The position numbers and the translations under genes were made by a program. From contig CBDCJO010000002.1 in NCBI GenBank assembly GCA_965217865.1, forward strand, positions 288,001 to 352,000: 64,000 nucleotides of DNA, written 5' to 3'. This document shows, in pieces, positions 33,985 through 51,698 of this stretch. Origin of the DNA: Candidatus Latescibacterota bacterium (GTDB lineage: Bacteria > Latescibacterota > UBA2968 > SICM01). Positions within the stretch are counted from its first letter, which is position 1, and each line of letters starts with the position of its first letter. Below the pieces are notes generated by a model, which saw only the letters and a list, made by a program, of their open reading frames with translations, did not search any database and was not told where the DNA came from.

Positions 33985-35377
33985 ACCCTGTGTCCAGACA
34001 CGTTCCTGAACGCTTTGGGCGCTCAGCGTCTCCCGGATCCGACCACAGCAGGCGACTTTACACGTCGTTTCCGGCCATCGGATATCGAGACGTTGATGGA
34101 TTGCATCAACCGGGTGCGCACCCGGATCTGGAAAAAGCGCGCCAGGGGCGAACTCAAAGAAGCCCTCATCGACATCGACGGCACCCTGGCCACCACCCTC
34201 GGAGAACGCAAGCAGGGCATGGCCCTGTCATACAACGGTATCTGGGGATACCATCCTCTCGTGGTCTCTCTGGCGAACACCAAGGAGGTGTTGTTTCTTG
34301 TGAATCGACCCGGCAATGTGCCCAGCCACGACGGTGCCGTAAAGTGGATCGATCGCGCCATCGCGCTGGTCGCCCCTTTCGCCAAACGCATCTGCCTGCG
34401 CGGAGACACCGGCTTCTCACTCACCCGGCACTTCGATCGTTGGTCGGAAAAGGTCGACTTCGTCTTCGGCATGGATGCTTACCGAGGATTGGTCAAGATC
34501 TCCAAATCCCTGTCACAGAGCGATTGGGAGCCCTTTGAACGACAACCCAAATACCAGGTCAAAACCTCCCAGAGACAGAAACGCGAGAACGTGAAAGCCC
34601 GGATCATCCGGGAGCGCGGCTTCAAAAACATCCGACTTGCCAGTGAACGTGTTGCCGAGGTTTCGTATCGTCCTGCTCGATGCAAGAAGACCTGTCGACT
34701 CGTGATCCTCGAAAAGAACCTGAGCGTCGAACGCGGCGAAAACGCCCTGTTCGATGACAAGCGCTGTTTCTTCTACATTACCACTCGAAAAGATCTTGCG
34801 GCCGCGGAAATCGTGAGGCTGGCCAATGGACGGTGCGATCAGGAAAACGTGATTGAACAACTCAAGAACGGGGTCAACGCCATGCGGATGCCCGTCGACA
34901 ACCTGATGAGCAACTGGGCTTACATGGTCATGACCGCCCTGGCGTGGAACCTCAAAGCCTGGTTCGCGTTGATGATCCGAAAGCGTGAGCGTCGCGATCA
35001 ACTTCTGAGAATGGAGTTTCGCGCCTTCCTCCAGAATCTGATCTGGATCCCTTGCCAGATCGTGACCCGGGGAAGACAGATCATCTATCGTGTCTTGGGC
35101 TACAACCGGTGGATGACTGACTTCTTCCCGGCCTGGAACAGAATTAGATGGCTCAAACCGGCCTGACTGCCATGTCAGCACCTGTCGTCGTAACATCACA
35201 AGGACAAGTCCGTCCACCCCGGCTAAAACACGTCCGCAAACTCAGTTAATTAGACAATCGCATGCCGAAACAATCACAAAAACAGCCCAGACATCATCTC
35301 CACCAAGTCACAAGTCTGAAATGCTCCGAAATCTTGTATAACACACCGCTCAACAAGCCTATTCGCTTATTTTAGGG
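33985..35377 (+). mobile_element. IS1380-family element with 5'-deleted transposase (34015-35166)
   Basis: PDPTTAGDF, IDIDGT, LRGDTGF, RCDQENVIEQLK, NWAYMVM; CTAG on both flanks. Confidence 0.85.
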
Positions 35378-35381
35378 CTAG

Positions 35382-36510
35382 CAGAGTGGGTTGGTGCTAA
35401 TGCGGAGACGCTCGATCAGCTGAGAGTTGAGGGCGATGCGCAACAATGGCTCGCGGTCTTTGTCGACATCGTTGGCGAATGCTGGAGCAACCGCGCTGGA
35501 ACTGACTTGTCCCCTCTTAGCGACATGATGCCAAACCAGAACCGGCGCCTATGTTCTCCTTCGGTGCTGAAGCGTGACCAGGGCGTTCCAGAACGCCTCA
35601 AGGACATCTGTACGGACATGGAATATGACATTCACGAAGAACTCTTTCTCGGCGGGTTTGAGGAAATCGCTGATTCTCTGGAACTAGGCCATTTGGCCAA
35701 AGCATTGGCAGATGCGATTCCCGCAGGCGTGACGGAAGATGATATCGTTTCGAAAGCTGTGAAGCTCATGGGCAGCAGATTGCCGGAGGATAGAAGCTGT
35801 GCCGATGTTGCTTCGAACGTGCAGCCGGCCACCGTTCGGCTCTTGGCTCATCTTTGGGAATCCAGAAAGGAGGCCGCCGCTTCCATTGCGAGACAAGTTC
35901 CGTTGGTCGCTTCGAGCTGTCGTGCTGTACGGTGGAGTTCGGAGCGGCTGTTCATGGGGCCGGTGCGGGCATGGCCGGAATCGGCGCAACCGTTCGCCGA
36001 CGCTTATCCGCCGAATCGCGTACTGAATGATCTATACGCTGGCTCTGAGGAAAATGAGATCCCGAATGTTGCTCCGGCTCTCGCCGAGTGGGGCATGGCC
36101 GTCTCCGATCCAATCACTGATGTCACGATCGAGTTGAAAGACCGTCGGCTCGATGCACTGAGTGGGGGTGATAGGACCGGAATCGTAGTCCCAGAGGAAC
36201 GATTGAGTCAGATTGCCCTTCTTCAACCCGAAGTGCTCAACCGCTGTCAGGAAGGAATCGATCAAGCGCGCGCGCTTCTGGGTCTTGTCCTGTGCGACGT
36301 GGCGCAACGTGACCCGGCGTGGAAGGAACAGCGAACTGCAAGGGGGAGAAGGTCGAACGAGGTTGTCGAGGTTCCAATACGAGGCGCTCTTTGGCTGGCG
36401 GATCTAAAAGTGCGAGCGTGGGTGCCGCAACCGGGGGAAGATGACAAGCCTCAGAAAATGGTTGCCAACGCGGCTACGCTTAAGGACCTACTGAATCCCA
36501 TGTGGCTGAC
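35382..36510 (+). pseudogene. Internal fragment of a large unknown protein (possibly sacsin/NOV-like)
   Basis: Long open frame with no start; ends at a junction. Confidence 0.4.
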
Positions 36511-36793
36511 GTCAGTATCCGAAATGAATCAGCGTTGCGGTACGAAGTGCCGCCAAAGATCTGGGAGTCCGGCGTGTCGATCGCCGCTTGGATCAAGGCC
36601 ATCATGGCTACCCTTTCGTAGTTGCTCGTTCCGGAGACAATTGCCGTCCTGTCGTGGCACGCTTACCTGGATATCTTTTGTCTGAGATCGCCCGAAAAAA
36701 CGGGGGCAAGGTCGAAGCAAGATCCTGGTTGCCTGTAGGGTTGAGAAGGGATACATATTTTGGGATATCCCTGACCTCACAGGAGGAGTAAAG

Positions 36794-37129
36794 ATGGAGC
36801 AACTGTCCTCAAACAGTGACCCGGTCAAGAAGCGCAGGAGCTTGTCCCCGGAACAGAAGTATGAGATTTTCCTTGAAGCCAGCCGGGGAGATGTTCCCAT
36901 TGCACAGGTGCTGCGGAAATGGGGCATTCATTCCTCGGATCTAAAGCGTATTCGTGAGTCGGTCAAGTCCGGGGCCCTCAAGGAGTTCAAGGGTCGCCGG
37001 AGCCGCAAGCCGATGGTATCGGCTGAGGAGGTGGAGCAGCTGCGCAAAGAGCGGGCACGCCTGGAGCAAACGATCATTGAGCAATCTGTGGAACTTTCCC
37101 TGCTAAAAAAAAGTGTGAATGGGATCTGA
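36794..37129 (+). CDS. IS3-family transposase OrfA
   Basis: Identical protein to 26915-27250. Confidence 0.85.
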   Translation: MEQLSSNSDPVKKRRSLSPEQKYEIFLEASRGDVPIAQVLRKWGIHSSDLKRIRESVKSGALKEFKGRRSRKPMVSAEEVEQLRKERARLEQTIIEQSVELSLLKKSVNGI

Positions 37130-37152
37130 CAGGCCCGATCAAGGGCCACCGG

Positions 37153-38184
37153 GTGCAAGCTGAGGTCAAACGCGAGATCCTCTTAATGGTCCATCGGGCC
37201 AAGGAGAAAGGGGTGAAACTCACCCGTTCTTGCGAGATCCTACAGCTTCCCCTCCAGCGGTATTGTGCCTGGAGCCGGCGAGATCGAGAAGAGAAGCTGG
37301 ATGGGGTGTCGGACCCGCTTTTGGATGGGAAGCCCGGGCCCGCCCCTGATAAGGCCCCACACGGATTGCTGAGGGAGGAGAAAGAGCAAATCCCGGCCCT
37401 CTTAAGGGATGAGACCTATGCCGATCTGCCTCCCCATCAGCTGGCGGTGGTAGCCTCAGAGAAGGGGGTAGTGCAGGCCTCGGCCTCCAGCTTCTACCGA
37501 CAGGCCAGGAAAGAACGTCTGGCACGCAGGAAACAGGTGAGGACGCCGGTCAAGCAGAGCAAGCCCCAGGTCAAACCTGAAGGTCCTAATCAGGTCTGGA
37601 GCTGGGACCTGACCTACATCCCATTTTTCGGTTTGTTCCTGTATTTTACCGCCATTCTCGACGTGTATTCCAGGAAGATCGTAGGATGGAAGCTCTCCTT
37701 CAACGCGACCGTGGAGCAGGTCAAACAGGCCTGGGATCAAGCCCTTGCCAACGAAGGACTGCTGGACCTGGACACTGGGCCCATAAGCTTGACAGCCCTC
37801 TCAGATCACGGATCTCAGATGAAGGCCAAATCGATGGCCCAATTCTTCAAGGACCTGGGCATCTCGCAGCTGTTTGCCCGATATCAAACACCCACGGACA
37901 ACGCCTGGATCGAAGCCTTTTTCCGGACATTCAAATACGACTGGCTGCGCTTCCAGGACATCTTCACATTCCATCAACTGGAAGGCCTGATTGATTCCTT
38001 CATTCACAGCTACAACGCCGAACGCTATCACGGGGCAATACAGTATGTCACGCCTCTTCAGAGGCATAAAGGCCAGCATCAAAAGATTCTTCACCACCGA
38101 CAAGGTCGAAAGGAGGAGGCTCGGCAGCGCCGCATAGAAATCAATCGGCAAAGAACATCCCAGACCATCCACAAGGCTGCCTGA
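37153..38184 (+). CDS. IS3-family transposase OrfB
   Basis: One aa difference from 25860-26891. Confidence 0.9.
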   Translation: MQAEVKREILLMVHRAKEKGVKLTRSCEILQLPLQRYCAWSRRDREEKLDGVSDPLLDGKPGPAPDKAPHGLLREEKEQIPALLRDETYADLPPHQLAVVASEKGVVQASASSFYRQARKERLARRKQVRTPVKQSKPQVKPEGPNQVWSWDLTYIPFFGLFLYFTAILDVYSRKIVGWKLSFNATVEQVKQAWDQALANEGLLDLDTGPISLTALSDHGSQMKAKSMAQFFKDLGISQLFARYQTPTDNAWIEAFFRTFKYDWLRFQDIFTFHQLEGLIDSFIHSYNAERYHGAIQYVTPLQRHKGQHQKILHHRQGRKEEARQRRIEINRQRTSQTIHKAA

Positions 38185-41578: not shown

Positions 41579-41740
41579 ATGGGAATACGCATCCAACCCC
41601 GTGAAATCGACGTACCTAAAAACGATCCCTTCAAGAACAACCTCCTCGGGCGGAAGGAGTCGGTAGAGGTCCTCATCCACCTCATTGGTAATCTCGAAGG
41701 TCCATGTGTCCTGGCGGTCGATGCCGCATGGGGGACCGGA
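41579..41740 (+). pseudogene. KAP-family P-loop NTPase N-terminal fragment
   Basis: DPFKNNLLGRKE...VLAVDAAWGTG, broken within Walker A. Confidence 0.7.
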
Positions 41741-41954
41741 TTCGAACGGTGTATGTGGATTTATCAGGCGAATTGCAGGCGAACACGGTATGTCTTGCCA
41801 AAGCCTCAGAGCCTCAATTCGAACTCGCTACGACGTCATCAATTCGGCTTTCGCGGCCGGAAGTGTTCCGCAAGACGGGCGAGGTCAATCAATAGGGTTG
41901 CATAGGTGCTACGCCAACAATACCCGGTAGTATGCCGTCAGAGACGCACTTGGC

Positions 41955-42932
41955 ATGAACGGATTTCGAAAAAGAACAGTCAATGAAGTCGCAGACATGA
42001 TTTGCGGCAATGAAAGCGATCACTTCACCTATAGAAGTAGCTTCTATTTGTCGGAGTTCTTCGAAGACTGTGACATGGAGCAATATGTTCACGACGGCTC
42101 CACCCGGAAATGGTGGGTTGCGAGCGTCCTCAACGAGATTCTGAAAGAGCCGGGTGGCAACCCTGCTCTGCCTGGGACGGGTTTTCAAACTGTCATCCAG
42201 GTTTTGATGGATCGCGCGGACCACACCGAGGACGACCCTGAACGTGAGGCTGCGCTGGCGGAACTAAACGTGACGCTCGCTCGCGAGGGGCTTAAAGCGT
42301 TCTACGCCGAGGACAACCGCTGTTACATACGCAACACCAAGACTGGCGAAGAGGCCCGACCCGGCCCGGTCGTGGACCGCGCCTTGTCCAAGGACGAGAT
42401 TGATCGCCGCCGCCGCCTCGAGTCTTACATGGATGCGGCGAGCGAGGACGATATCACCGAGAAGGTGATTCTTCCACTTCTCCAAACACTCCGATTTCAG
42501 AGGATTTCAATCGCTGGCCACAAGGACAAGACAATGGAGTTCGGCAAAGATCTATGGATGAAGCATCGCCTGCCCACCGGACACTGGCTCTACTTTGGCC
42601 TGCAGGTGAAGCGCGGAAAGATAGATGTGACCGCGAGAACCAAGAATGAAAACGTCGCGGAGGTCCACCGCCAGATCACCATGATGCTCGGACATCAGAT
42701 ATTTGATCCGGACATCAACAAGAAACAGCTCGTAGATCATGCAATCATCGTGGCCGGTGGCGAAATCACCAAGCAGGCCAAACATTGGCTCGCAGAAAGG
42801 CTGGACGCCTCGCAGCGGAGTCAGATCCTGTTCACGGATCGGGCTGACATTCTTCACCTATTCGTCGTCCACAACGTTCCAATGCCGGACGACGAGCGCA
42901 CCGAGGAGTTCGATGACGACATTCCATTTTGA
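41955..42932 (+). CDS. Putative restriction-endonuclease-fold protein with AbiJ-like N-domain and SSB-like acidic tail
   Basis: ADMICGN..F.YRSS..LSEFF..HDGSTRKWW; SEDDITEKVILPLL, EFGKDL, FGLQVKRG; ends EEFDDDIPF. Confidence 0.7.
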   Translation: MNGFRKRTVNEVADMICGNESDHFTYRSSFYLSEFFEDCDMEQYVHDGSTRKWWVASVLNEILKEPGGNPALPGTGFQTVIQVLMDRADHTEDDPEREAALAELNVTLAREGLKAFYAEDNRCYIRNTKTGEEARPGPVVDRALSKDEIDRRRRLESYMDAASEDDITEKVILPLLQTLRFQRISIAGHKDKTMEFGKDLWMKHRLPTGHWLYFGLQVKRGKIDVTARTKNENVAEVHRQITMMLGHQIFDPDINKKQLVDHAIIVAGGEITKQAKHWLAERLDASQRSQILFTDRADILHLFVVHNVPMPDDERTEEFDDDIPF

Positions 42933-43526
42933 AGGTACTTAAGCGTCAAGTATATAAGCACCAATAAAATAGCTGAATAGCTAGACACTTAGGAGGACAA
43001 ATGAGCATCCGCATAGACGTTCAAATGGACCACGGAAGCGAGTCGACACGGTACGTCGCAACGGCCACGGAGGATGGGAAGCACCTGCACGAAGTCGAGA
43101 AGAACGGCGCCCGGAAGTCTGCGACGAGGTGTTCAGGGAGATGGCAGCGTGGTTATTGATGTGTTGCATTACGAGCCAGATCCGGAGGTTGAGCTGGAGC
43201 TAGACCTTATGTATTGACGAGTATATGAAAGACCTCCTTCTCAGTACGAAACAACATGCGCCTGTATCGCCTTTCGTGGCGGCTGACAGGAGAAGCGCGA
43301 AAAACCAGGGAATTCGCTCCTCTTGCATGTCCTTCCCAAACCGCCCAACGAGCCGCTCGAACATCGGAAAGCGTCGGCGCAATTCGTCGACAAGCTCCCG
43401 CTGATCGTTACTCGCTAAACCGCTACTCACCCGCATTGCCTCACGCTTTCCGATGTCCCGGTCTCCGTCGGCTTTTACGTTTAAATAACCATAAATCCTA
43501 CAACATATTGGGGAAGCGCGTCTCAT

Positions 43527-46296: not shown

Positions 46297-47823
46297 CAGC
46301 CTGTTGAAAAAGTGCGTTTATGCCAAGATGACTGTTGTCTTTCCTTGTGGTTTGGTCCTATGATATATCAGGTTCAAACTGAGAAGGGAGGACGAGCAGA
46401 TGGCAATGGGAAAACGAGGCCGACAGAGACAGGAAAACCTGTTCATCGCATCGAACACTTTGGTGAAATCTCCGGGTCATCCGTTCTACGAGAAGCTGAA
46501 TCAGGTATTGGGGGCGAACGGCTTCGACGAGTTCGTCGAGGGGCTTTGCCAGCGGTATTACGCTCCTCATATGGGTCGCAAGGGCATTCCGCCCGGGGTT
46601 TATTTTCGGATGCTTTTGATTGGGTATTTCGAGGGACTTGATTCGGAACGTGGGATCGAATGGCGTGTATCCGACTCGCTGACGTTGCGCCGGTTTTTGG
46701 GGTATGACCTTGACGAACAGACCCCGGATCATTCCAGCCTGTCTCGCATCCGGCATCGGCTTCCCTTGGAAGTTCACGAAGCGGTTTTCAAGTGGATCCT
46801 GAGGGTCTTGTGCAAAGCGGGTCTGGTGAAGGGGAAGACGTTGGGCGTGGATGCTACGACACTGGAGGCCAACGCCGCGATGCGCAGCATTGTACGCCGT
46901 GACACGGGTGAAGGCTACCAGGCATTCCTTGAGAATCTGGCCAAGGCCTCGGGCATTGAAACGCCTACCCGCGAGGACTTGTCCAAGATCGATAAGAAGC
47001 GACCGAAGAAGGGATCGAACCAGGACTGGGAGCACCCGCACGACCCGGATGCCAAGATCGCTAAGATGAAGGACGGTCGCACGCACATGGCGCACAAGGT
47101 GGAGCACGCGGTGGATCTGGACACCAATGCCATTGTGGCAGTGGCGTTGTCGGGAGCAGATGAAGGAGATACCGGGTCGTTGCCCTGGACGCTGCTCGAG
47201 GCGCAGCTCAATCTCAAGCAGGTCGCGAAGGACGAAAAAGCTGCCAAACGTTTGCACAGACAGCGTATACGGGAGGTGGTTGCGGACAAAGGATATCATA
47301 GCAACGATGTATTGACCAGTCTGAAGCAAGGCGGCATCCGGAGTTACATTTCAGAACCGGATCGGGGACGCCGCAAGTGGAACGGCCGACGAGATGAGCA
47401 GGCCGCGGTATATGCGAATCGACGCCGGATCAAGGGAGATCGCGGCAAGGCCTTGCGCCGAAGTCGTGCAGAACGGGTGGAAAGAACCATCGCTCACACA
47501 TATGATACCGGTGGCATGCGCAGGTTGCACTTGAGAGACCGCGGCAATATCCTCAAGCGTTTGCTGATCCACATCGGGGGCTGCAACCTGGCTCTGCTCA
47601 TGCGCAAAGTGATGGGCGTAGGTACTCCGAAGGCCCTCCAGGACTTGGCCAAGGCCTTGCAGCGTCTACTGCTCGTCCTACAATCACGCTTTGCTGCCCT
47701 CGGTCACCTTTTTAACCTCTTATCAGCGTCTCCTGCTCAATCTCCTTACCTTGATTTATCCGACCCGCACTCCAGGCGTCTTTTCCGTTTATGTGCGTTG
47801 AAAGGTAGTTCTTCAACGGGCTG
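46297..47823 (+). mobile_element. IS1182/IS5-like element, copy 1
   Basis: IRs CAGCCTGTTGAAAAAGT / AGTTCTTCAACGGGCTG; TSD CTAC. Confidence 0.92.
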
Positions 47824-47938
47824 CTACGCGTCTCTTAAGGAGAGGCCCTGTAGATCGTCGGCGAAAGCCAGACGTGTTCCTCCAGGGGCGGCTCGAGGCG
47901 GTAAGCGCGCGACTGTCGCCGGAAATCGTATAGCCTGA
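46400..47938 (+). CDS. DDE transposase (DUF772 plus DDE), reads through the right IR
   Basis: GRKGIPP, TPDHSSLSR, GVDATTLEANA, VADKGY. Confidence 0.9.
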   Translation: MAMGKRGRQRQENLFIASNTLVKSPGHPFYEKLNQVLGANGFDEFVEGLCQRYYAPHMGRKGIPPGVYFRMLLIGYFEGLDSERGIEWRVSDSLTLRRFLGYDLDEQTPDHSSLSRIRHRLPLEVHEAVFKWILRVLCKAGLVKGKTLGVDATTLEANAAMRSIVRRDTGEGYQAFLENLAKASGIETPTREDLSKIDKKRPKKGSNQDWEHPHDPDAKIAKMKDGRTHMAHKVEHAVDLDTNAIVAVALSGADEGDTGSLPWTLLEAQLNLKQVAKDEKAAKRLHRQRIREVVADKGYHSNDVLTSLKQGGIRSYISEPDRGRRKWNGRRDEQAAVYANRRRIKGDRGKALRRSRAERVERTIAHTYDTGGMRRLHLRDRGNILKRLLIHIGGCNLALLMRKVMGVGTPKALQDLAKALQRLLLVLQSRFAALGHLFNLLSASPAQSPYLDLSDPHSRRLFRLCALKGSSSTGCYASLKERPCRSSAKARRVPPGAARGGKRATVAGNRIA

Positions 47939-48639
47939 CGATCCTGAAGACCTCGGGGTGCTCATTGGAGACGCACAACTCGTTCTTGGTGATGAAAAAA
48001 GGAGTTGTCTTGGGACCATTCGTCGTCTTGATCTCCAGCCAACGCTCTCGGCAGGCCTCATCACCGGTTCCGTCGAAGGACATGATGTCGTAGCCGTAAC
48101 CGTCGCCATCGTCCCTGGCGACCCAGCGGACGCGGTCGGACAGGTCCTTCCGGCCAAGTTCCTCGAGGCGGTGCCTTTCCACCTTGAAGACGAGCGCTTC
48201 TCCCGCTTTTCCGAGATCCCGATTCCGGGCATCCCTCTCGTCCGGGCGTTTCGCGTGGCGGCGGTGCATCGTCGAAGACAAGACCCGGCCCGGCCAGGGG
48301 CTCTGAAGATTCGCGCCTTACCCCTACGGCTTCCCCGGTCAGGAGCGCATGAAGATCGCGGTCCTTGCCGAGGCGGGCTTCAACCGCCTTGAACAGCGCC
48401 TTCTGGTAATTCCTATACGGCTTGTAACCGTCTATGTAGGGAAGGCCGAGTGCGGCCATGACCGCACTGATATTCATGTGCTTGCGCTCGACCGATCCCT
48501 CGGAACGACCAATGGTTTCCATGAGTGCACGCCGATGCTCAGCCTTGTTGAAAGCACGTCCTGCCTGCTCATGCCCGAGCATGTCGAAGTAATCTCCGAT
48601 GATGGCATCGATTTCGTTGTCAGACCAGTTCCGTGCCAT
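47835..48639 (-). pseudogene. DUF3883 (NOV_C) nuclease-domain protein, frameshifted ~48270
   Basis: WSDNEIDAIIGDYF..KHMNISAV..GYKP; LGKAGE, GYGYDIMSF, WLEIKTT, FFITKNE. Confidence 0.8.
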
Positions 48640-48891
48640 GCGCTATCAGCCAGTACTTGCCATCAGGTTGTGCTCGACGTCGTCCAAGAATTCGGCGGGT
48701 TTCGGCGCTTTGGGCTGCGGTTCGTGGTTTGAAATCACTCAGCAGTCTTTGTTCTCAGGGGCCCACCAGGGCATCGAAGTCGCCCCCCAGATCAAGGGTC
48801 CGCGCGTCCCCCGCAGCGGGATGCCAATACCAATTGGACTTGACCCGGTTTCGTGGATACCTTATTACTTGGCAGAAAGGAGGATGCTACG

Positions 48892-49206
48892 ATGCCGAGG
48901 TCACATTCGCCGTATCCACCGGAGTTCAAGCGGCAGATTGTAGAACTGGTGCGAGCGGGTCGCACGCCCCATGAGTTGTCCCGTGAGTTCGAGCCGTCGG
49001 CCCAGGCGATCCGGATCTGGATGCGGCAGGCCGATCTGGATGAGGGCCTCCGCAGTGACGGTCTGATCACCGAGGAGCGGGAGGAGATCAGACGACTGCG
49101 CCGCGAGAATAGGCAGTTGCGACAGGAGCGGGAGATCCTTGCAAAAGCCGCGGCCTGGTTCGCTCGGGAGACCAACTCGGTGCCAGGGGAGTCTACGAGT
49201 TCGTGA
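48892..49206 (+). CDS. IS3 transposase OrfA
   Basis: YPPEFKRQIVELVRAG...LRQEREILAKAAAWFA. Confidence 0.9.
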   Translation: MPRSHSPYPPEFKRQIVELVRAGRTPHELSREFEPSAQAIRIWMRQADLDEGLRSDGLITEEREEIRRLRRENRQLRQEREILAKAAAWFARETNSVPGESTSS

Positions 49207-50063
49207 AAGCCAATCAGGCCTTCTATAAAGTAGCCACGATGTGCCGGGTCCTGGAAGTCTCCACCAGTGGGTACTACGCGTGGCTCAAGCGGCCGCTGTC
49301 GGCACGAGCGCAGGCCGATGTGGCTCTGACGGAACGGATCGTGAAGATTCACAAGTGTTCTGATGGCACCTACGGTGTCCCGCGCATATACGAGGAGCTT
49401 GTAGCCGAGGGGGAGCGGATCGGTCGCAAGCGCGTTGCGCGGTTGATGCGTGCTGCAGGCCTGGAGGGCGTAAGTCGTCGCAAGCGGCATCGAACCACCT
49501 ACCGTGATCGCGATGGGCGCGTCGCTGCTGACCTGGTCAATCGAGATTTCACGGCTAACGGGCCAGACCAGCTCTGGGTAGCCGACATCACTTACATCAG
49601 TACGTGGGCCGGCTTCCTGTATCTCGCGGTCGTTGTGGACGCCTGGAGCCGCCGCGTCGTTGGCTGGGCGATGGCGACCCATCTGCGCGCCGAGCTGGTG
49701 CTCGAGGCGTTGAATATGGCGCTCTGGCAACGACAGCCGGAAGCCGTCATCCATCACTCCGACCAGGGATGTCAGTACACCTCCATTGCCTTCGGTCTAC
49801 GGTGCCGCAAGGCCGGTGTCCGGCCCTCTATGGGCTCCACCGGTGACTGCTACGACAACGCGTTATGCGAGAGCTTCTTCGCCACGCTCGAATGCGAACG
49901 CCTGGATCGCCGAAACTACCGCACACAGGCCGAAGCTCGGATGTCCGTATTTCAATACATCGAGGGCTGGTACAACTCCCATCGGCGACACTCAGCACTC
50001 GGATATCTCTCTCCCATGAACTTTGAGCAGACCTCCAGCGCTGTTGCCCATGAAGCCGAATGA
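49203..50063 (+). CDS. IS3 transposase OrfB
   Basis: WVADITY, HHSDQGCQY, CYDNALCESFF. Confidence 0.95.
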   Translation: MKANQAFYKVATMCRVLEVSTSGYYAWLKRPLSARAQADVALTERIVKIHKCSDGTYGVPRIYEELVAEGERIGRKRVARLMRAAGLEGVSRRKRHRTTYRDRDGRVAADLVNRDFTANGPDQLWVADITYISTWAGFLYLAVVVDAWSRRVVGWAMATHLRAELVLEALNMALWQRQPEAVIHHSDQGCQYTSIAFGLRCRKAGVRPSMGSTGDCYDNALCESFFATLECERLDRRNYRTQAEARMSVFQYIEGWYNSHRRHSALGYLSPMNFEQTSSAVAHEAE

Positions 50064-50282: not shown

Positions 50283-50815
50283 TCAGAACTGATACTTCAT
50301 GTTGAGGCTGACGCCCCAGAATTGAATGTCCTCCGTCATCGCTGTGTATCGCACCCGCGCACCGCCCGGTCTAACAGTGGACTCATGACTGCGGAGCTGA
50401 TCCCACTCTTCCCCATCCTCGAATTCACCGAAATCCGCCCACTGGAACTTGAGCCCGATGGTGACCGGCTCACTGACCCGATAATCCACCCCGGCGATCG
50501 CCTGATACCCGAACAGCGTATCCGAGAGCTTGGCCCTGCCGATGGTAGTCGTCCCGGCGACCCGCTGGTTCAGAATCTCGCGGTCTTCAAGTTCTGCCTC
50601 CGAAATACCTTCAATGTCCTTGTCATTTGTGAATGTCGGGATGTCGCGGTCGTCATAGTTCCTCGTCCATCGGTTAAAGAAGTCCAAGGAAACCTGCCCA
50701 ACCCCGACTCCAAACCCCACGTACGGTGTAAACTTCGAGTCCACGCAAACCCAACGACGCTTATTACGCTCACAACCGATACCTCGAGAAAGTCGTCGGT
50801 AGAGGTGTGGTGGGA
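50283..50815 (-). pseudogene. Outer-membrane beta-barrel (Opa-like) C-terminal fragment
   Basis: FTPYVGFGVG, FGYQAIAGVDY, WGVSLNMKYQF. Confidence 0.7.
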
Positions 50816-51698
50816 TTTCACCATTCACGAATGTATTAGAGATATCCCAATGGCGCTGGATCATCACATCTCGCGCAGTGGGGTGTCTTGACAGGTGGAG
50901 GAACCACAAGGCACGTCGTGACCCTTGGGGTCGCACGAAGAAGGGCGTATCGTAGGTCGCGTGCGTTACGGCACGAATATGGTCACGCAACGTTCTCTGA
51001 ACGAGGGCTCTTCCGCCATATCCATCTCTCTGCTCGACCAACTCGTGCATTCGTGATTCTGTCAATTCGAGCGGAGCAACTGCCTTGACTAGCAACGGTG
51101 TTTTCGCAAGGTGGTTCACGAGTGCGTCTGCGGCAAACGTAAGTATGACCTCCGCCGCCGGAAGTTCACGAAAAATCCGAGCAATGAGTTCCAGCTTCAC
51201 CTGTGAAAATCCGGTCTGGTCAAGGAGAAATATCGAGCGGCCGGCCCGAGGCTGACGGCGGCGAATTTCCGCGATGATGTCGTCAATCGCTTCTTCGAAC
51301 CGTTCGTTTCTAACGACGATCGATTCATCATCGACTCGGAACCCGCGTTCATTCAGAACTCTCCTGAGATGATCCACATGAGCGGATTCCTTGTCGACAA
51401 AGTAGTATTTGCAATCCAAATTTAGGGGCTTTGTGCGCTTCCGGTTCAGTCTGGTCTTTGCTGCTTTGGATTCCTCCAGCATGATCAGGGGCGTACCGGA
51501 CACGATCTCATCGTCGTCCCGGAACGTGCCTCCTCCGGCAAAGCCATCGACAAGATCGAGTTTGAATTCTTCGCGAAGAGGACTGACGTTCAGCCTGTCA
51601 AAATAGGCGCGAAGGTACTGCCGCAAAACGTCGAGCTTTGCCTTGCTGTGCGCCTCGATCGGAGGCGGCGATTCGTCAGGATACCACCTGAAATCCAT
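50816..51698 (-). pseudogene. tcmP: Three-Cys-motif partner protein TcmP, 3'-truncated and fused in frame to the barrel fragment
   Basis: HSKAKLDVLRQYL, LVDGFAGGG, SGTPL, FLLDQTG; follows DUF5131. Confidence 0.75.

Follow-up and report, generated by a model that had tools for sequence, protein, structure and literature searches.

We analyzed a 64,000-nt stretch of DNA (hereafter the window, meaning the whole stretch) and identified on its forward strand, at positions 41955 to 42932, an unbroken ORF of 325 aa with the C-terminus DDERTEEFDDDIPF, followed by a stop codon. The whole gene (41955..42932, +) encodes an AbiJ-NTD1-type domain, an Mrr-type nuclease domain and a tail resembling the SSB tip, and it is present in one copy in the 6.43-Mb host genome. 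A short-read contig from run X2, possibly the source sample, covered positions 42378-43201 with zero differences, and a contig from another study (run X7) spanned the entire gene with 32 substitutions and no gap. The ORF call, the translation and these contigs bear out the preliminary description, which had reported an intact 325-aa ORF with an SSB-like terminus. Promoter and terminator scans around the gene gave results no better than chance, and a single 152-nt contig (depth 3.5) in one RNA run was not counted as evidence of expression. Sequence searches of Pfam, NCBIfam and the PDB returned no family for the 325-aa protein. There was also no full-length profile match in PADLOC 2.0 or the NCBIfam defence systems; weak partial matches were found in PADLOC (Cmr4, 0.0016; Stk2, 0.004) and none in NCBIfam. 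Placement in the Atlas put the protein in an unnamed 'restriction endonuclease' cluster of 2,683 members, and the family is without a library model and annotated as hypothetical.

Directly upstream of the nuclease gene lies a truncated gene for a KAP-type P-loop ATPase (41579-41905, +), whose first 50 residues match PADLOC PDC-S20 at E 2e-13. In public runs, related contigs part from the window at ~41733, indicating that the window carries just the start of this ATPase gene. A PDC-S36-like defence candidate with a NOV_C domain is split into two overlapping ORFs (47835-48639, -; matches of 1e-39 and 3e-56), 5 kb away from the nuclease gene. Another ORF (50283-51698, -) matched PADLOC PDC-M30A/M41A in its first 200 residues while its end resembled an outer-membrane beta-barrel, suggesting that two broken genes were joined into one chimeric ORF. 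Positions 34015-38184 and 46400-50063 hold gene fragments and several ORFs that we take, from their sequences, to be transposase-like; the GC content shifts abruptly here, and the region has a mosaic make-up.

The N-terminal and nuclease domains

The N-terminal domain (aa 1-130; 41955..42344, +) is mostly helical and was assigned to the AbiJ-NTD1 type by profile comparison and by a set of fusion partners like that in Table 2 of PMC3710099. Its conserved residues are G18, F24, Y26, R27, H46, T50, R51, W54, R97 and R110. A profile of aa 1-130 identified Abi_C HEPN proteins (L195-L197) with E-values of 1.6e-13, 2.7e-11 and 2e-7, and hhalign aligned the domain with an Abi_C protein at 96.7% (E 4e-10, 108 columns) that itself had a PADLOC AbiJ match at 1.6e-22. 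HEPN proteins bearing the N-domain had E-values of 1e-22 to 1e-27 against PADLOC AbiJ and of 6e-11 to 6e-9 against the Stk2 N-terminus. The window N-domain alone matched Stk2 with an E-value of 7e-4 at profile positions 5-70 only, and 6 of 32 family members matched the Stk2 profile at E 0.1 or better; judged from these profiles, the direct link to Stk2 appears weak and is otherwise transitive via the HEPN proteins. The domain was also found on protein L204 (E 2e-34), whose effector we take to be deoxyribosyltransferase-like, a label for which PADLOC gave a weak match (1e-5). Although the 'AbiJ-like N-domain' of the preliminary description had no Pfam match, the label stands, since the profile comparison and the fusion set both agree with AbiJ-NTD1.

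AbiJ-NTD1 was defined as a ~140-aa mostly helical domain, with fusions to an MRR-type REase named, as a prediction only (Anantharaman et al. 2013, PMC3710099). The part of that paper on these architectures gives AbiJ HEPN, kinase, REase and nucleoside deoxyribosyltransferase-like effectors as fusion partners, the same set as was recovered here, and proposes that they combine a sensor with a suicidal toxin. The pairing of AbiJ-NTD1 with an MRR-type REase is thus already predicted in 2013, and our protein has the same domain pair, a likeness that rests on the fusion set and not on a published alignment; the account of this pair in that part of the paper mentions no SSB-like tail and no trigger. 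We infer that the N-domain (aa 1-130) acts as a sensor. AbiJ of Lactococcus and Stk2 of Staphylococcus are also single-gene defences, and the kinship of the N-domain is direct for AbiJ-like proteins and weak or transitive for Stk2. However, the AbiJ effector is a HEPN domain and the Stk2 effector a kinase, neither of them a DNase, and the AbiJ-like fusions that we examined had no SSB tip, unlike the 325-aa nuclease. The C-terminal Abi_C HEPN domain of the AbiJ system is absent from our protein, whose C-domain has a PD-(D/E)xK fold and no Abi_C or AbiJ match, and a Stk2-type Ser/Thr kinase domain is absent as well. Pfam AbiJ_NTD3 matched neither the 325-aa protein nor 58 relatives, and in 301 proteobacterial genomes it detected one unrelated protein. 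A search among proteins of 570-2000 aa for longer N-domain fusions was negative, which carries little weight. When the N-domain was folded alone without an alignment, the pLDDT was 49.9 and a fold search of that model was uninformative. A CARD reading of the domain was dropped as the death/CARD alignment reached only Z 4.6, within background; NLR or protease partner genes, as in a bacterial CARD-NLR, were not conserved around the nuclease gene.

The AlphaFold model of the protein (63 sequences; pLDDT 83.6) contained two domains and a low-confidence tail. Structure matches by VIA-align located an Mrr-type PD-(D/E)xK nuclease domain at about aa 143-311 (42381..42887, +), and aa 143-315 of the model matched AspBHI (4oc8; Z 10.2, rmsd 4.0, 138 aligned), AF1548 (1y88; Z 9.2) and MspJI (4f0p; Z 8.9). 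Foldseek with the nuclease model gave a best E-value of 1.3e-3, and a viral fold library yielded weak nuclease matches only. Four residues were invariant across 32 diverse and 90 further homologues (alignments A2 and A3), and they form the predicted active site (42444..42611, +): E164 (42444-46), D199 (42549-51), Q217 (42603-05) and K219 (42609-11). We assume their catalytic role from the PD-(D/E)xK consensus. The D...QxK restriction-fold motif noted in the preliminary description is therefore real, the four residues being invariant and the model matching Mrr-type nuclease domains, and DNA cleavage by this domain is the predicted activity. Pfam Mrr_cat did not match the 325-aa protein and matched below cut-off in 5 of 32 relatives (best E 0.002). 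Our protein shares its fold and the D...QxK active site with the nuclease domains of Mrr, MspJI and AspBHI (PF04471; Z 8.9-10.2). On the other hand, it lies below the Pfam cut-off for these nucleases, has no SRA or Mrr_N reader, and adds a sensor-type N-domain and a tail. We also noted the same nuclease domain, tailless and fused to Schlafen/AlbA_2 or LRR, in several proteins (P0192, P0227, P0238, P0243, P0244, P0254; P0234), and these are a further uncharacterised effector family.

The SSB-like tip and its apparent match to the host SSB

The nuclease domain is followed by a variable, predicted disordered linker (aa 312-318; 42888..42908, +) and by FDDDIPF (aa 319-325; 42909..42932 with the stop codon, +), a mimic of the SSB C-terminal tip as judged from sequence, conservation and comparison with the host. 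E. coli SSB ends in MDFDDDIPF, and the translation of ORF 41955-42932 closes with EEFDDDIPF. DDDIPF is given as the bacterial SSB tip in the relevant part of PMC5872125. The nuclease tip has the SSB motif, with a terminal Phe, Pro at -2, a hydrophobic residue at -3, acidic residues at -4 to -6 and a disordered linker; it is, like that of bacterial SSB, a free C-terminal acidic-hydrophobic-Pro-Phe end and appears matched to lineage. To place this in the background of the host genome, whose SSB ends in KEDDDLPF, we used its 31,804 six-frame ORFs of at least 60 aa, most of them not genes: 122 ended in PF, 27 ended in [ILVMAF]PF, and only two of the 27, the nuclease ORF and the host SSB, had at least four acidic residues at -9 to -4. 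The SSB-like end of the nuclease ORF is more than chance.

The PF end was present in 74 of 80 GTDB loci (the best 80 of at least 516), with two of the six exceptions being broken genes, in 19 of 21 viral loci and in 91 of the 120 closest proteins, the tip being lost or degenerate in the remaining 29. Intact-looking genes without it were L007, L072, P0041, P0086 and P0127. In a 90-sequence alignment, for which mostly tailed members had been chosen, mean column conservation was 0.80 for the nuclease domain, 0.35 for the linker (aa 312-319) and 0.77 for the tip. In an unselected set of 127, the last residue was F in 100 and the second-last P in 103, residues -4 and -5 were acidic in 72-74%, and position -7 was often F or L, as in SSB. 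The SSB-tail mimic of the preliminary description thus survives the comparison with homologues, with a conserved tip against a variable linker, though 29 of 120 were without an intact tip. The tail was undocked in the AlphaFold model, where residues 315-323 had a pLDDT below 50.

In a related clade of nucleases, whose fusion partners include Schlafen and LRR domains, the tip was absent (0/18). Among close nucleases with swapped N-domains it was present in 2 of 6, while none of four other complete N-domain fusions (three HEPN and one glycosylase-like) had it. These three observations indicate that the tip belongs to this nuclease clade, and the absence of the tip from other N-domain fusions ruled out that it goes with the N-domain. 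That the tip is general on defence effectors was likewise unsupported, the one case being a HEPN protein. This gene, in a Massilia locus (L047:4874-5875, +), lies just upstream of the nuclease, has weak HEPN/RES-NTD1 and HEPN matches and ends in DLDDIPF, and its four homologues found elsewhere had no SSB-like tip. We also noted that actinobacterial-type tails (L207, L208, L209, L039, P0142) often contain Pro-Trp shortly before the tip, and that the actinobacterial SSB tails L153 and L158 have DPW upstream.

Mimics of the SSB tip that we found in print are phage-borne, namely Bas52_0087 (DRT10 preprint) and DUF669 (PMC13687109), as described in the sections compared. SSB and these proteins bind ssDNA or are phage-borne, whereas the protein described here lacks an SSB domain and is predicted to be a bacterial immune effector. 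No published SSB-like tip on a defence effector was found, nor any paper on six plasmid accessions and one E. coli accession, with subscription papers and the supplements of defence screens outside coverage, and the DRT10, CARD, modularity and integron preprints describe other systems in the parts concerned.

We searched 77 host genomes for SSB and obtained a match in 74, of which 70 gave pairs, the window included, with PF at both ends. Residue -3 of the nuclease was the same as in the host SSB in 48 of the 70 pairs (shuffle mean 30, p 5e-5) and in 44 of 65 without the Actinomycetota (p 2e-4). When shuffled within phyla, the match remained significant for positions -7 to -3 (p 1e-4) and -12 to -4 (p 4e-4), and position -3 alone was not significant (p 0.33). 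The SSB of Actinomycetota ends in EPPF, and PPF ended the nuclease in 4 of 5 paired Actinomycetota and in none of the 65 other pairs. Actinobacterial plasmid copies, compared without their own hosts' SSBs, had PPF in three of four, two of them as DEPPF, and the Corynebacterium copy had ELPF. LPF was found in 7 of 8 Bacteroidota pairs, the exception grouping with Alphaproteobacteria, and two Patescibacteria copies that are nested among actinobacterial ones had IPF as in their hosts. In one Patescibacteria pair the nuclease ended in DDKPISLDEIPF and the host SSB in DDKPIDLSEIPF, with 10 of 13 residues identical. Identical codons were used at only four of these 10 residues, which favours selection at the protein level over recent DNA copying; codons mostly differed in the eight pairs checked, and recent copying from ssb was rejected. 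The longest match seen, of about 12 mirrored residues, was between the Patescibacteria loci L061 and L075 and the host SSB loci L185 and L180.

On the tree, independent pairs numbered 4 and 1 with none opposite, which was not significant, and a single origin each is permitted for the actinobacterial and the Bacteroidota tips. The host match therefore appears strong by permutation but reflects few independent events on the phylogeny. L occurred in the nuclease tip where the host SSB has I in 10 pairs, and the window itself is a mismatch, with IPF in the nuclease and LPF in its own host's SSB; in two genomes of the same class as the window's host, tip and SSB agree at LPF. The closest copy among the matches listed (97%) comes from a genome whose SSBs end in IPF, which fits recent transfer of the window copy. 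A 97%-identical copy in another genome (L009:6001-6970) is split in two frames, by pseudogene formation or an assembly error.

Distribution and genomic context

The search for homologues yielded 2,125 among 4,468 candidates. At least 516 stretches were confirmed in 185,579 GTDB genomes, the best 80 of which were analyzed, and the nuclease was also found in 21 viral loci and 47 plasmid records. A 981-bp version was present in 189 of 5,426 complete E. coli genomes; the E. coli copy is carried as cargo by a prophage remnant, in which it is flanked by dicB and hokD. E. coli homologues include WP_023147794.1 and the plasmid-encoded WP_089576189.1. The 50,697 GenBank phage records searched contained no copy. 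Only two of 40 relatives of the host had the gene, neither of them in the same family, and the distribution is patchy.

An all-against-all comparison of the flanks of 101 loci detected no conserved partner gene, indicating that the nuclease has no operon or antitoxin gene, and a cognate methyltransferase was not conserved in the flanks. For 43 of 91 loci (150 of 318 proteins), we examined the two genes closest to the nuclease on either flank for defence functions; as controls we took arbitrary stretches from the same genomes, of which 34 of 40 (133 of 160 proteins) were covered. ABC ATPases, sigma70, sigma54 activators, desulfurases and methyltransferases were dropped by judgement on both sides. 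A clear defence neighbour was present in 13 of 43 loci as compared to 1 of 34 controls (Fisher p 0.002), the controls leaning to long contigs. These neighbours included Gabija, AbiL, retron I-C, Uzume, PifA and Mrr plus type I RM, and the plasmid copies lay among DUF4062, DUF4238, DUF3800, HEPN, VapBC and type I RM genes. The context, together with the lack of a conserved partner, supports the earlier suggestion of a single-gene defence. Retron-type reverse transcriptases (L041, L044, L049, L057, L101) and SRAP peptidases (L002, L012, L029, L040, L087) recurred in the flanks, probably as shared cargo of hotspots. In three proteobacterial loci (L011, L054 and L059, one of them from Bradyrhizobium) the nuclease was near uvrA, directly behind it in L011 (2727-6972) and with ssb close by in L054 (837-6987); these copies are possibly settling into a repair locus.

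A candidate role in sensing phage annealases and its alternatives

The 325-aa nuclease is best placed with the predicted AbiJ-NTD1 sensor-effector proteins, to which it adds an unusual mimicry element. We consider it probable that the tip acts in trans, by binding an SSB-tip pocket of some kind. Our preferred reading, to which we give a probability of about 0.4, is that the protein is a single-gene abortive-infection nuclease sensing phage single-strand annealing proteins. The dispersed nuclease would be inactive, since each chain has one active site. An incoming phage would make an oligomeric annealase, which ordinarily loads on coated ssDNA by gripping SSB tips, and the false tip would tether the nuclease to the annealase ring or filament. 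The N-domain would read the annealase or its complex with DNA, as its Stk2 and AbiJ relatives appear to do, and crowding on the oligomer would pair the nuclease domains and activate them. The paired domains would then cleave recombination intermediates of the phage, and probably the DNA of the host too, so that the infection is aborted. A role for the tip in docking or as bait, proposed in the preliminary description, would fit both the conservation of the tip and its tracking of the host SSB.

This reading draws on published work on related defences and on annealases. The activators of Stk2 are Sak or Sak4 homologues (PMC5499656; PMC12323379), and phages escaping AbiJ had Sak or Erf mutated in 9 of 9 cases (PMC12184496; PMC13064643). 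Red-beta binds the C-terminal nine residues of E. coli SSB (PMC6393309), Sak4 requires the terminal six of the SSB of its phage (PMC5928155), Sak80a requires the tail of its SSB (PMC11846896), and the portability of RecT was guided by the host SSB tip (PMC13490951). Despite their unrelated folds, these annealases have a need for SSB tips in common. Both the AbiJ and the Stk2 relatives thus point to annealases that need SSB tips, and this suggested to us the annealase-sensing reading. On the other hand, expression of annealases did not trigger AbiJ but relieved its toxicity instead (PMC12184496), which counts against it, as does the fact that other N-domain fusions have no tip, since the N-domain then does not need one. 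The weak Stk2 link, the few independent host-match events, the IPF/LPF mismatch, the 29 of 120 tipless proteins and the uvrA and ssb neighbours also argue against it. A match to the host is not required by this model, as Sak and Sak4 use the SSB tail of their own phage, and host SSB partners would explain the match equally well. A narrow profile found no Red-beta-like gene in the window's genome. Hna, AbpAB and retron Eco8 (cited in PMC12184496), DRT4, AbiK and Stl2 also sense phage ssDNA-handling machinery, being triggered by phage SSB or directed at phage recombinases, but in the accounts compared none recognizes the phage through an SSB tip that it carries itself.

More specifically, and more tentatively, the tip may be a counterfeit of the host SSB tip that is tuned to each host lineage and baits an SSB-tip pocket common to structurally unrelated phage recombinases. 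If true, one gene would contain a decoy sensor based on host mimicry, and AbiJ-NTD1 would be a general recombinase-sensing module, which would help explain the response of Stk2 and AbiJ to unrelated annealase folds. How unrelated defences sense unrelated phage annealases is stated to be unclear in the abstract of PMC11846896, and a tip-bearing nuclease would make this testable. The SSB tip is a hub of bacterial genome maintenance and the entry point used by phage recombinases; a defence effector wearing it would turn this dependence of the phage into an alarm that could hardly be evaded unless recombination were given up. The same mechanism may bear on the failure or toxicity of recombineering proteins in some strains.

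The SSB partners of the host include RecQ, PriA, RecO, RecG, RarA, ExoI and the clamp-loader subunit chi, and these partners differ between the phyla that carry the nuclease gene. The tip could dock the nuclease on such partners, either at forks and ssDNA gaps or as a guard of the partner, with the N-domain sensing infection separately; in the guard version we propose that phage interference with the partner would release or activate the nuclease. This is the main rival reading, and we regard it as somewhat unlikely. A tip that follows host lineage is what a host-encoded pocket would lead one to expect. The reading also gains from the tip staying with the nuclease domain when the N-domain is a different one (in 2 of 6 close swaps) and being absent where the N-domain joins other effectors, from the three copies that neighbour uvrA, one of them also near ssb, and from the precedent, in the part of the DRT10 preprint concerned, of the SSB partner SbcB setting a defence threshold (bioRxiv 10.64898/2026.04.29.721553). 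However, it gives no account of why both characterised N-domain relatives point to phage annealases, the gene spans phyla with differing SSB partners, and a nuclease stationed at host forks all the time would put the cell at risk and need a further switch. If the reading holds, the tip would nonetheless connect an immune nuclease to the replication network in a new manner. A modification-dependent type IV restriction enzyme of the Mrr/MspJI kind, whose N-domain reads modified or damaged DNA and whose tip aids access to replicating DNA, is unlikely. The best fold matches were indeed the nuclease domains of AspBHI and MspJI, a cognate methyltransferase was not conserved, and the aromatic and basic residues that are conserved could serve in DNA binding; but the fold match is confined to the catalytic domain (aa 143-315), Pfam found no SRA or Mrr_N reader, and the N-domain is homologous to AbiJ-type N-domains and occurs on HEPN, kinase and glycosylase-like effectors too, suiting an infection sensor.

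The autoinhibitory latch of the preliminary description is less favoured, and we find it quite improbable. In the version considered here, the acidic tip would fold onto the protein's own basic DNA-binding surface or an N-domain pocket and keep the nuclease off, and release would come from phage SSB tips, ssDNA or a phage protein that binds SSB tips. Many Arg and aromatic residues are conserved in the N-domain, inhibition in cis has been proposed for these architectures (PMC3710099, section 12), and the SSB tail binds back on its own OB domain according to the relevant part of PMC3936761. On the other hand, the tail was undocked in the 63-sequence AlphaFold model (pLDDT below 50), a purely internal contact need not track the host as this tip does, and the intact-looking genes without a tip should be toxic if the latch model were correct. 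The tip may also be incidental, an acidic end without an SSB-related role or a relic, which we judge to be very improbable. The exact PF end is missing in 29 of the 120 closest proteins and in all 18 of the Schlafen/LRR-fused clade, and the similar tip on the neighbouring Massilia HEPN protein is missing from its four homologues. However, the nuclease tip is kept behind its free linker in homologues down to ~40% identity, it follows the pattern of SSB even at -7, where the residue is hydrophobic, and its lineage-specific variants mirror those of the host.
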